Shown here: piece by piece, positions 30,878 through 32,763 of the stretch
Numbering within the stretch: position 1 is the first letter of the stretch
Layout: every line of letters starts with the position of its first letter
NCBI GenBank assembly: GCA_018303545.1
Contig: JAGVXY010000010.1
Coordinates: 1,643-65,642, forward strand
DNA length: 64,000 nucleotides
Origin: Candidatus Woesearchaeota archaeon
GTDB taxonomy: Archaea; Nanobdellota; Nanobdellia; SCGC-AAA011-G17; JAGVXY01
Reading direction: 5' to 3'
Program-made: the position numbers and the translations under genes
Notes under the pieces: model-generated
Told to the model about the DNA's origin: nothing
The model's input: only the letters and a program-made list of their open reading frames with translations
Database searches by the model: none

Positions 30878-31682
30878 ATCTATTAGGATATATCTTTGAA
30901 CGATATCTTAATACTAAAACGCTGTAACCTTGATATGGCCGAAGCTCATTAGACATTTTCTTTACTTCAAGTAATCTATCATACATAAACTTATACACCT
31001 TTTTATCTGATATCTCTCGAATCTTACAAGCTCTTTTAATGGTACTATGGCAATAATGCTTTAATTCTTCATCAGTTTCCTTTAGAATATCATTTCTCTC
31101 TTCATAGATAATCTCCAAACCCCGATAAATCTTTATTATGTCTTTATATGATTCAACAGTTGGAGTAATTCCAAACACTTTATTAAATTTTGCAATCAAG
31201 GGTTTAGGTAATTTAGATTTAATATAAAAGGGTGATGCAAGAATAACTCCTCCGTCATTTAACAAACTAATACATTTTTTTAGCATTCCTTCTGGGTCTG
31301 GAAAAAACTTTAATGCAGCCCCTATGACTATGTGAGAAAATTTCTCTTTTGTATTAAATTTATATCCATCTTCAACTAAATAATCTATTTTGATTTTTGG
31401 GGCGTATTTTTTCTTATTATAAACAGCACTTTTGACTGATTTTTCAGAAATATCAATTGCTTTCCCCTTACATCCCGTTAAAATCGCCAGTTCTCTTGAA
31501 GAGAAACCTGTTGTACAAGCAATCTCTAGTATATTTGATTTTTTATTTAAGTTTGAGAATATGGCCCATTTTGATAATGTATTGTGAGAACCAGGCAATA
31601 CATTCCATTGATTTATAAAACCAACAAAATCGGTATAAGACATAGCCTTTATTTCATTAACTGTTATTTCCTTCTTTTTCAT
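30861..31682 (-). CDS. Class I SAM-dependent methyltransferase
   Basis: ILEIACTTGFSS motif I and LNDGGVIL motif post-II. Confidence 0.7.
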   Translation of the reverse strand: MKKKEITVNEIKAMSYTDFVGFINQWNVLPGSHNTLSKWAIFSNLNKKSNILEIACTTGFSSRELAILTGCKGKAIDISEKSVKSAVYNKKKYAPKIKIDYLVEDGYKFNTKEKFSHIVIGAALKFFPDPEGMLKKCISLLNDGGVILASPFYIKSKLPKPLIAKFNKVFGITPTVESYKDIIKIYRGLEIIYEERNDILKETDEELKHYCHSTIKRACKIREISDKKVYKFMYDRLLEVKKMSNELRPYQGYSVLVLRYRSKIYPNRYVELF

Positions 31683-32763
31683 TCTCTTTTACCCCTGATT
31701 CATTTATACTAATGATTTTTTTATTTGCATCTATTCTGGCCTTAACACCATAAGGTATTGTTAACATAGGACAAGTATGTCCAAAATTTACGTGCGTAAC
31801 AATAACTAAATCCCCTCTATCATATTCTTTAGCAACAGTTTTAATGGCATCATCAAAATCTTTAAAAGTCTTTAGATGCGCATTAACCTTCTTCTCATAG
31901 TTTGGATCATCATATTCAAAACATCCTCCAGGAATACCTAAAATTATACCATTGAGTTTATTCAATATTCCTTGAGCACCATAATTCCTTAACCAATATT
32001 TGAACATATTAACAGAGGGCATTTCTTCAGATGTTTCTAAAAACAATATCGCATTTTGCCATGATTTCTTGTCTGGCCAAAGTTCAGTGCATTTTAATAT
32101 TTCTAGAGTTTCCATACAACCACCAATCAAATGTCCCTCTACAGTTCCTTTTCCTTGTATGAACTGAATATCATAAGGTTTTTGTAATTTTCTTCTGATT
32201 TTATTGCCTTCTTTAGTCCAAGGAACCATATCAAGTGTCCATCCCTCTTTACAATTTTCTATTGTTCCAATTGGTTTTGCTGAAAATAACGTCTTCTTAA
32301 AACTATTGACAGTATATTTATGGATTCCACAGTTTTCTGCCAATCCAAATAATACTGTAGGCCCATAAAAAGAAGTCAATCCCACTTTTGAACACAATAA
32401 ATTAATGATTGTGGTATCTGAAAGCCCAACAAATATTTTTGGATTATTTTTAATAATTTCCAAATGTTTAGGTTTTAAGCACCTTAATAATCTAATAGTA
32501 TCATCTCCACCAATGATTGTAATTATCGCTTTGATATCTTTATTTTCAAATGCCCAAATTAGATCATTTAATCTTTCTTCTGGGTGTTCATAAATCCAAT
32601 CCTCTGATTTCAAAGCATTTGGTGTCTCCACAACTTTTAAATCGAAAGTTTCTTCAATTTGTTTTTTTCCTTGGAGATATCTGTCTTTACAAGTATTTGC
32701 TCCGCCCCATGCTAAAGTAATAAGGGCAACTTTATCTCCTGGATTCAACTTTGTTGGTTTCAT
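31657..32763 (-). CDS. Peptidase S66 family (LD-carboxypeptidase LdcA / microcin C immunity MccF-like)
   Basis: N-terminal GDKVALI, nucleophile motif VGLSDTT, LFLETSEE, and C-terminal VNFGHTCPMLTIPYG (Ser-Glu-His triad context). Confidence 0.75.
   Translation of the reverse strand: MKPTKLNPGDKVALITLAWGGANTCKDRYLQGKKQIEETFDLKVVETPNALKSEDWIYEHPEERLNDLIWAFENKDIKAIITIIGGDDTIRLLRCLKPKHLEIIKNNPKIFVGLSDTTIINLLCSKVGLTSFYGPTVLFGLAENCGIHKYTVNSFKKTLFSAKPIGTIENCKEGWTLDMVPWTKEGNKIRRKLQKPYDIQFIQGKGTVEGHLIGGCMETLEILKCTELWPDKKSWQNAILFLETSEEMPSVNMFKYWLRNYGAQGILNKLNGIILGIPGGCFEYDDPNYEKKVNAHLKTFKDFDDAIKTVAKEYDRGDLVIVTHVNFGHTCPMLTIPYGVKARIDANKKIISINESGVKENEKEGNNS

Follow-up and report, generated by a model that had tools for sequence, protein, structure and literature searches.

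The gene at positions 31657 to 32763 on the minus strand of a 64,000-nucleotide stretch of the genome of a Candidatus Woesearchaeota archaeon (contig JAGVXY010000010.1; the whole stretch is referred to here as the window) encodes a 368-amino-acid serine peptidase of family S66, read from ATG to stop. Sequence comparisons, a bootstrapped tree and the predicted fold all show that the protein is of the MccF type, within the subfamily represented by BA3275 of Bacillus anthracis, and is not an LD-carboxypeptidase (LdcA). MccF-type peptidases are bacterial resistance determinants against "Trojan horse" aminoacyl-nucleotide antibiotics. The archaeal gene is the fourth of seven tightly packed, abutting or overlapping genes on the minus strand. 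With moderate confidence, we favor the interpretation that the product of this seven-gene cassette is an aminoacyl-nucleotide conjugate of the microcin C/agrocin 84 type and that the S66 peptidase confers self-immunity.

The window is archaeal by gene content (GatD/GatE, RNase P Rpr2, FttA/aCPSF1 and an ATP-dependent DNA ligase), and NCBI lists the protein of an operon neighbor under "Candidatus Woesearchaeota archaeon." An identical operon was found on contigs of at least four independent metagenome assemblies, and thus the operon is not an assembly chimera.

Relationship of the S66 peptidase to MccF and LdcA

A sequence-only reading of the window had proposed an S66 peptidase with three hallmark motifs, and exactly this open reading frame (ORF) contained all three: GLSDTT at residues 113 to 118, LFLETSEE at residues 240 to 247 and NFGHT at residues 326 to 330. 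Both halves of the Peptidase_S66 domain, N-terminal and C-terminal, scored above the Pfam gathering thresholds (PF02016, 81.4 bits versus a cutoff of 25; PF17676, 79.5 bits versus a cutoff of 23.7), which places the protein in the family. The catalytic triad of Ser115, Glu243 and His329 (codons at window positions 32419 to 32421, 32035 to 32037 and 31777 to 31779) aligned with S118/E243/H311 of MccF and with the triad of LdcA. Loss of these residues, which the sequence-only reading had named as an outcome that would speak against it, was looked for on the alignment, and Ser, Glu and His were all intact. The triad was also kept in all natural homologues examined, bar one conservative Glu-to-Asp replacement (P0028).

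The top matches to the protein among sequences in the PDB were four BA3275 entries (best E value, 3e-91; phmmer). These were followed by an MccF-like protein of Streptococcus pneumoniae, BA_5613 and Escherichia coli MccF (~1e-25), and the LdcA of Pseudomonas aeruginosa had an E value of 0.009. BLAST scores were 304 bits for BA3275 (45% identity), 117 for AgnC5 of the agrocin 84 system, 100 for E. coli MccF and 38 for E. coli LdcA. Against the NCBIfam LdcA equivalog model (NF008424) the protein scored 51.7 bits, far below the cutoff of 378, and it is thus not assigned to LdcA by this model. When the AlphaFold (AF2) model of the protein (mean pLDDT, 96) was compared with the PDB with Foldseek, ranks 1 to 33 were all chains of the MccF clade (TM scores of 0.71 to 0.90), and every LdcA entry fell in ranks 34 to 47 (TM scores of 0.55 to 0.68). 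Among the top entries is one with the title "S116A Ba3275 with AMP bound," which indicates that the nearest solved relative binds a nucleotide.

The sequence-only reading had called for a phylogeny that would separate an MccF from an LdcA assignment. In a neighbor-joining tree built from 61 sequences (200 bootstrap replicates), the window protein fell within a BA3275-like clade of the MccF type (bootstrap support, 99.5%), in a subclade of DPANN sequences (98.5%), and not with LdcA. The rooting of this tree was not relied upon because only one LdcA sequence was included.

Features of the nucleotide-binding region were in agreement with this placement. The spacing between the YGP and GGx motifs was 82 residues in the window protein, 80 in MccF and 50 in LdcA, and the MccF-type insertion of ∼30 residues, which is absent from LdcA, was present. 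Within the alignment, Trp182 (codon at 32218 to 32220) corresponds to W186 of MccF and was kept in at least 90% of 48 homologues. W186 in MccF is the residue that stacks against the adenine in processed microcin C (PMC8323819). One MccF feature was not found in the window protein: N220, R246 and K247 of MccF are replaced by Glu218, Glu246 and Glu247. A similar acidic pocket was seen in BA3275 (Glu/Glu/Asp) and at two of the three positions in AgnC5, which has Glu at the equivalents of N220 and R246. We take the three MccF residues to bind the acidic side chain of Asp and Glu substrates. If this is correct, then a neutral or cationic aminoacyl or aminopropylated substrate would be expected in preference to Asp or Glu mimics, because all three positions are Glu in the window protein. 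Among the aspartyl-, glutamyl- and seryl-sulfamoyl adenosines that the sequence-only reading had put forward as substrates, the aspartyl and glutamyl compounds are therefore doubtful.

BA3275 (PDB entries 5F9M, 5F1Y, 5F5X and 5JYB; "member of MccF family of enzymes") is identical to the window protein at 45% of positions over the full length and superimposes on the model with TM scores of 0.89 to 0.90. The triad is shared between the two proteins, as are the insertion loop with its two Trp residues and an acidic pocket, and BA3275 was crystallized with AMP. In contrast to the bacterial protein, the window S66 peptidase has an extra segment of ∼20 residues at approximately residues 279 to 300 and sits in a cassette with genes of the MccD-like type and of the dCTP deaminase (DCD) family. 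No paper describing BA3275 was found in the literature. The three BA3275 chains that were aligned (5F9M, 5F1Y and 5F5X) carry Ala at the nucleophile position, including an entry titled "native"; judging from the title of 5F5X, the wild-type nucleophile is presumably Ser116.

The window protein shares the S66 fold, the Ser-His-Glu triad and the nucleotide-binding loop with the MccF proteins of E. coli (3TLA to 3TLZ) and B. anthracis (3GJZ). Like MccF, it is encoded alongside an MccD homologue and a decarboxylase of the MccE N-domain type. It differs from E. coli MccF in having only 28% sequence identity, in the three Glu residues of the pocket and in being encoded within the operon, whereas mccF is divergently and separately transcribed. 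The LdcA proteins of E. coli and P. aeruginosa have the family membership, the two-domain fold and the triad in common with the window protein, but they align with the model at TM scores of only 0.63 to 0.68, lack the 30-residue loop and belong to a context of peptidoglycan recycling that is absent here; none of the operon genes is related to peptidoglycan. The "LD-carboxypeptidase/LdcA" annotations of these archaeal genes are probably wrong.

A natural fusion protein in the same clade as the window S66 peptidase (P0116) joins a GNAT acetyltransferase (Acetyltransf_1/3) to an S66 peptidase of the BA3275 type. It unites the two Pfam families that serve microcin C immunity in MccE's C-terminal domain and in MccF. 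The common ground is at the level of Pfam families, as no pairwise similarity was detected between the GNAT domain of the fusion and the MccE C-domain.

The seven-gene cassette and its relatives

The S66 gene is cotranscribed with the other six genes of the cassette and is probably translationally coupled to its operon neighbors; the start of the downstream MccD-like gene overlaps the S66 stop by 26 nucleotides. A scan for sigma-70 promoters and terminators did no better than chance, and its model is not applicable to an archaeon. The sequence-only reading had placed the S66 gene inside a putative biosynthetic island. The island proved to be a discrete, horizontally acquired cassette of biosynthetic appearance, and the neighbors of the S66 gene include a specific homologue of MccD, a decarboxylase of the MccE N-domain type and a stand-alone class II synthetase core.

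The gene that follows the S66 gene (30861 to 31682, minus strand) encodes a 273-amino-acid, MccD-like class I enzyme dependent on S-adenosylmethionine (SAM). Its only strong match in the PDB was MccD (5FCD; E value of 8e-25 over the full length), with the next methyltransferase at 0.015. Identity is 28% with plasmid-borne MccD and 26% with AgnB1 of the agrocin 84 cluster (E value for AgnB1, 3e-25), and homologues with 60 to 74% identity were found in DPANN archaea and in bacteria of the Candidate Phyla Radiation (CPR). The protein is probably a 3-amino-3-carboxypropyl (or methyl) transferase.

Upstream in the operon, a 407-amino-acid pyridoxal phosphate (PLP)-dependent decarboxylase with the ornithine/diaminopimelate/arginine decarboxylase fold (34397 to 35620, minus strand) shares homology with MccE's N-terminal domain (E value, 1e-12, with 23% identity across 382 residues). 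It is closest to decarboxylases of natural-product pathways. The nearest solved structures are 6KNH ("probable diaminopimelate decarboxylase") and BtrK, an enzyme that decarboxylates carrier-bound glutamate. The gene between the decarboxylase and S66 genes (32816 to 34396, minus strand) codes for a 526-amino-acid radical-SAM enzyme. Pfam detected only the radical-SAM domain in this protein, and the assignment to the B12-binding class comes from NCBIfam relatives; the best NCBIfam match, to PhpK-type P-methyltransferases, was weak (141.7 bits versus a cutoff of 600). This gene was missing from the two closest cassettes (L084 and L010) and appears as a lineage-specific insertion. A different B12-radical-SAM gene adjoins the S66 gene in two other loci (L032 and L033).

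The first gene of the operon (35635 to 36687, minus strand) encodes a 350-amino-acid class II synthetase-like protein derived from ProRS. No Pfam family matched it at significance, but it matched the catalytic cores of bacterial ProRS in the PDB at ∼1e-10. The protein is very rare: a word-indexed search of 5.8 billion proteins yielded one other close cluster (61% identity). The distant relatives (∼25% identity) that were recovered with an exhaustive HMMER search are "mini" ProRS proteins of ∼400 amino acids, with which it has an MKASNL N terminus and a Cys-rich insert (CxxC...CxC) in common. The protein thus appears to derive from such a "mini" ProRS. Its motif 2 is degenerate (FRDG... versus FRDE...R..GL.R..EF), and it has a short tail resembling an anticodon-binding domain.

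The last two genes encode DCD-family proteins of 173 amino acids ("a," 30356 to 30877, minus strand) and 178 amino acids ("b," 29823 to 30359, minus strand). Protein "a" retains the dCTP deaminase catalytic set K/R110-S111-R115-E138, and protein "b" has Gln in place of the catalytic Glu138. The same pattern was found across the family: R/K110, S111, R115 and E138 were kept in all 45 of the "a" sequences, and E138 was replaced, mostly by Gln and in a few cases by Met, in all 48 of the "b" sequences. By these residues, the pair would represent a conserved partnering of an intact deaminase with a deaminase-dead paralogue.

Pfam searches of all seven proteins detected no ThiF-family protein and no transporter; a seven-codon precursor ORF was not systematically sought. 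An anti-phage defense function was also considered and was dropped, since PADLOC gave no convincing match for any of the seven proteins.

The seven genes are bracketed exactly by two 129-nucleotide direct repeats that are 98% identical and 7345 nucleotides apart. The right, attR-like repeat (36919 to 37047) comprises ∼49 nucleotides of the promoter region upstream of alaX and the first ∼80 nucleotides of this gene, which is intact, lies outside the cassette on the plus strand (36968 to 37669) and encodes a 233-amino-acid homologue of the AlaRS editing domain. The left, attL-like repeat (29574 to 29702) holds a 27-codon stub of the 5′ end of alaX. Because this repeat of the alaX 5′ end brackets the operon, the seven genes can be regarded as an inserted element, and they look like a 7.3-kb cassette integrated at the 5′ end of alaX, its apparent target. 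No integrase gene was found within the cassette. An exact-flank search of metagenome contigs for an unoccupied alaX site returned nothing, so that the insertion is deduced from the repeats alone.

In order to determine the distribution of the module, 185,579 species representatives of GTDB were scanned. Exact patterns were required, and the 72 loci recovered are therefore a lower bound. These loci span Nanoarchaeota/Woesearchaeota, many Patescibacteria, metagenome-assembled genomes (MAGs) of alpha- and gammaproteobacteria and cultured bacteria, the latter including Paenibacillus baekrokdamisoli, Photorhabdus viridis, Pseudomonas batumici, Burkholderia lata, Roseateles and three Streptomyces species. 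The module was not found on viral contigs of IMG/VR. In two alphaproteobacterial MAGs direct repeats lie on either side of the module, with a length of 62 nucleotides in one (L023; 8021 to 8082 and 14272 to 14333) and of ∼180 nucleotides in the other (L039; 167 to 364 and 5689 to 5883), which suggests that the module moves as a cassette in bacteria too.

Co-occurrence was evaluated in 60 nonredundant loci, for which ORFs were called and clustered and families were confirmed by tblastn. The MccD-like gene was accompanied by DCD genes in 54 of the 60 loci, by a class II synthetase-like core (AlaRS-, Asp/Lys-, Phe- or ProRS-like) in 43, by an S66 peptidase in 34, by the PLP decarboxylase in 27 and by a full-length LeuRS in 11. 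The genes flanking the module were otherwise unrelated between loci. The closest cassettes, L084 and L010, have the gene order ProRS-like, PLP decarboxylase, S66, MccD-like, DCD, DCD; in other DPANN versions an AlaRS-like core of ∼320 amino acids takes the place of the first two genes. Clusters of free-living bacteria add genes for ATP-grasp, nonribosomal peptide synthetase (NRPS)-like, carbamoyltransferase, extra methyltransferase, radical-SAM and MATE proteins.

The S66 genes of the module were split into two clades with a mutual identity of 23 to 26%. Type A, which is BA3275-like, was found in modules of DPANN archaea, of alphaproteobacteria and of some CPR bacteria (Saccharibacteria), and type B, which is 35% identical to E. 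coli MccF, mainly in CPR modules. The position and strand of the S66 gene differed from locus to locus, and it directly adjoined the MccD-like gene in 14 of 46 S66 occurrences, near-identical copies included. The S66 gene was missing from 26 of the 60 loci, including all those of Streptomyces, Burkholderia and Pseudomonas, where the MccD-like, DCD and synthetase-like genes stay; the S66 peptidase is thus dispensable for the core chemistry. S66 and LeuRS genes tended to exclude each other (both, 2 loci; S66 only, 32; LeuRS only, 9; neither, 17; Fisher P = 0.0065, ignoring phylogeny).

Two further features were seen among these loci. One Woesearchaeota genome encodes a second MccF-like S66 peptidase (L004, 16796 to 17782; L005, 8235 to 9287) ∼5 kb from a cassette of the AlaRS type, and this gene sits between those for a MATE exporter and a LeuRS. 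The CPR modules (L008, 12190 to 13323; L015 to L031) encode a PheRS-like protein of 371 to 377 amino acids with a tRNA-synt_2d core and an FDX-ACB domain. Monomeric PheRS of the mitochondrial type has this architecture, which bacteria seldom show; the protein may represent a second form of PheRS, either alternative or resistant.

When plasmids were searched by tblastn with the MccD-like protein as the query, mcc plasmids and a 44,420-bp Agrobacterium plasmid with the agrocin 84 cluster were recovered. The latter is pAt3 (L090; NZ_CP048507.1) of Teh001, a walnut isolate labeled A. tumefaciens, and its agn cluster appears to be complete. The gene order of this cluster is AgnA (an AsnA-type class II synthetase core), AgnB1 (MccD-like), AgnB2 (LeuRS immunity protein) and AgnC0/C1, followed by an SDR, a methyltransferase, an amidohydrolase, the S66 peptidase AgnC5, a dioxygenase and a radical-SAM enzyme. 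AgnC5 of pAgK84 is 27% identical to the window S66 peptidase (E value, 2e-31) and has the same loop. The agrocin pathway has been stated to be unknown, with AgnA proposed to form the phosphoramidate bond, and AgnC1 resembles ProRS by HHpred (PMC8323819). Similarity between AgnC1 and the ProRS-like protein of the window was not detected by BLAST or phmmer, and homology is not claimed.

The agn cluster resembles the window cassette in its MccD-like AgnB1, its class II synthetase-like cores and its radical-SAM and other SAM enzymes. It differs in lacking both the DCD pair and the PLP decarboxylase and in possessing an ABC exporter and a resistant LeuRS; a full-length extra synthetase is not encoded in the window cassette. 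Compared with the microcin C cluster, the window cassette has MccD-, MccE-N- and MccF-like parts but no MccA, MccB or MccC. The window cassette thus shares the logic of both families of acyl-phosphoramidate nucleotide antibiotics but is a member of neither, and the DCD pair occurs in neither. No paper describing such a cassette (MccD with dCTP deaminase and a synthetase-like protein, or S66 in DPANN or CPR) was found.

Role of the S66 peptidase in the cassette

If the cassette produces an aminoacyl-nucleotide conjugate, a plausible pathway can be assembled from its genes. The stand-alone class II synthetase core (ProRS derived in the window; AlaRS-, LysRS/AspRS- or PheRS-like in relatives) would activate an amino acid or analogue, which it would then couple to a nucleotide. 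The two DCD-family proteins, one an intact deaminase and the other deaminase-dead, would supply or transform a pyrimidine nucleotide. The MccD-like enzyme would alkylate the conjugate by transferring aminocarboxypropyl from SAM, the PLP decarboxylase would then trim this group to aminopropyl, and the B12-radical-SAM enzyme might add a lineage-specific methylation. The resulting conjugate would thus probably contain a pyrimidine nucleotide and bear an aminopropyl group. The S66 peptidase would hold the nucleotide via its MccF-type loop, with Trp182 stacking on the base, and hydrolyze the amide that joins the aminoacyl carbonyl to the nitrogen through which it is attached to the nucleotide. Such cleavage would disarm product or intermediates that accumulate in the cytoplasm of the producer, giving self-immunity as with MccF.

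We infer an immunity function from the homology to MccF, the dispensability of the S66 gene, the recruitment of two S66 clades, the variable placement of the gene and its anticorrelation with LeuRS; the natural GNAT-S66 fusion also speaks for this function. The sequence-only reading had judged detoxification or immunity to be the more plausible role. The results bear out its premises that the peptidase is of the MccF type and is part of an island; immunity itself is made plausible by homology, by the dispensable and variable S66 gene and by the anticorrelation with LeuRS.

Several points weigh against this interpretation. All steps beyond an MccF-clade hydrolase are inferential, and neither the cassette nor BA3275 has a known product, substrate or activity. 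The cassette is not a microcin C cluster, because an exporter, a ThiF-type MccB and a precursor peptide are all missing from it, and the lack of an exporter leaves the route of a toxin to its target unexplained. The MccD-like protein, at 26 to 28% identity to MccD and AgnB1, may simply be a methyltransferase, and the ProRS-like protein could be a resistant ProRS, because it has kept the anticodon-binding-like tail. In DPANN cassettes, the S66 gene is in the middle of the operon and translationally coupled, like agnC5 in the agnC operon, an arrangement that fits a biosynthetic enzyme equally well. The recognized immunity genes for agrocin 84 are agnB2 and agnG, and the S66 peptidase of that cluster has no known function. 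The anticorrelation of S66 with LeuRS, for which phylogeny was ignored, could mirror different products in different lineages. Furthermore, the S66 tree holds a single LdcA sequence.

The leading alternative, though we consider it less likely, is that the S66 peptidase acts within the same pathway as a biosynthetic or maturation enzyme, either removing a transient aminoacyl or peptidyl protecting group or serving as an acyltransferase via an acyl-enzyme. The central, codirectional position of the gene in DPANN cassettes, with overlapping or abutting neighbors, and its adjacency to the MccD-like gene in 14 of 46 occurrences are consistent with such a role. So is the agrocin system, in which the S66 gene lies inside the biosynthetic agnC block, away from agnB2 and agnG, the recognized immunity genes (PMC8323819). 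However, an enzyme required for synthesis would be difficult to reconcile with the 26 of 60 loci that lack S66 but keep the MccD-like, DCD and synthetase-like genes, with the replacement of one distant S66 clade by another or with the variation in strand and position. In addition, the MccF enzymes, which are the only characterized relatives named in the structure titles and reviews used, are detoxifying hydrolases.

It is improbable, but conceivable, that the cassette makes or salvages an endogenous modified nucleotide, such as a cofactor, a signal or a precursor for tRNA or DNA modification, for ultrasmall symbionts, with the S66 peptidase as a turnover hydrolase. The module is overrepresented among DPANN and CPR organisms, which depend on scavenged nucleotides, its MccD-like and DCD proteins show unusually high conservation (55 to 80% identity) between archaea and bacteria, the window cassette has no exporter, and the pairing of active and dead DCD proteins resembles ordinary dCTP-to-dUMP metabolism. 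A housekeeping function of this kind is at odds with the patchy distribution (at least 72 loci in 185,579 species representatives), with the direct repeats that flank the module in three unrelated genomes and with the recombinases that adjoin it in some. Moreover, the copies of Streptomyces, Photorhabdus, Pseudomonas and Paenibacillus lie beside secondary-metabolite enzymes (ATP-grasp, NRPS-like, carbamoyltransferase and MATE), and the LeuRS embedded in the Roseateles and Pseudomonas clusters mirrors self-resistance of the agnB2 type.

A genuine LdcA-like LD-carboxypeptidase that trims murein tetrapeptides scavenged from bacterial neighbors or hosts is very improbable. Homologues are annotated as "LD-carboxypeptidase/LdcA" in source databases, and the NCBIfam LdcA model gave a weak match (E value, 6e-14), but this match was far short of the equivalog cutoff (51.7 versus 378 bits), the BLAST score to LdcA (38) was much lower than those to MccF (100) and BA3275 (304), LdcA structures ranked below all those of the MccF clade, the 30-residue MccF insertion is present and the operon has no peptidoglycan gene. 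Least credible of all is a recently transferred gene without function in the archaeon: the S66 gene does lie in an acquired cassette and its clade is nested among bacterial sequences, but the ORF and triad are intact, the operon is unchanged in several metagenomes, and the 12 DPANN sequences of the 98.5% clade, with 53 to 69% identity, have kept the catalytic and pocket residues, which points to purifying selection after transfer.

The self-immunity interpretation can be extended to the whole family, although this is tentative and may well not hold. A mobile cassette shared by DPANN archaea, CPR bacteria, scattered Proteobacteria, Firmicutes and Streptomyces might make a peptide-free aminoacyl-nucleotide inhibitor of synthetases by an undescribed route, combining a stand-alone class II synthetase core, a heteromeric pair of DCD-fold proteins and MccD-type aminopropylation. 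Specificity might be swapped via the core (Pro-, Ala-, Lys/Asp- or Phe-type), with immunity conferred by an MccF-clade S66 peptidase or by a resistant copy of the synthetase.

Chromosomal surroundings and implications

The remainder of the window is ordinary chromosome. Just outside the cassette, a tRNA gene on the plus strand (28744 to 28846), which was found with Rfam (45.9 bits) and missed by ARAGORN, is 103 nucleotides long compared with a model of 71 positions and probably contains an intron. Between this gene and the cassette there are two ORFs on the minus strand, one of 94 amino acids (29235 to 29519) and, following it, one of 111 amino acids (28851 to 29186) with weak similarity to ParE/YoeB toxins (E values of 0.02 to 0.05). 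They may form a toxin-antitoxin pair. Farther away, a set of genes for PrkA, DUF444, SpoVR and PrkA on the plus strand (3867 to 11153) was found in this DPANN archaeon; we presume that it matches the bacterial yeaG-yeaH-ycgB stress module. A 1284-amino-acid protein with at least 10 DUF285 repeats (1037 bits), encoded on the minus strand (50791 to 54645), is probably a surface protein.

Taken by itself, the S66 peptidase adds a new member to a known clade. Its cassette is a new variant on the theme of nucleotide-antibiotic clusters, which, as far as the literature found shows, has not been described in Archaea or CPR bacteria. It offers a testable function for the BA3275 subfamily, which has been structurally solved but not explained, and for the S66 gene of the agrocin 84 cluster. 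If the proposed role is correct, the chemistry and immunity logic of MccF would extend to Archaea and the Candidate Phyla Radiation. There would then be a modular route to synthetase inhibitors that requires no precursor peptide and in which specificity is perhaps set by the synthetase core, and this would make it a promising target for genome mining and antibiotic discovery. This would also be the first such toxin/immunity system in Archaea, possibly a weapon or a device with which episymbionts control their hosts.

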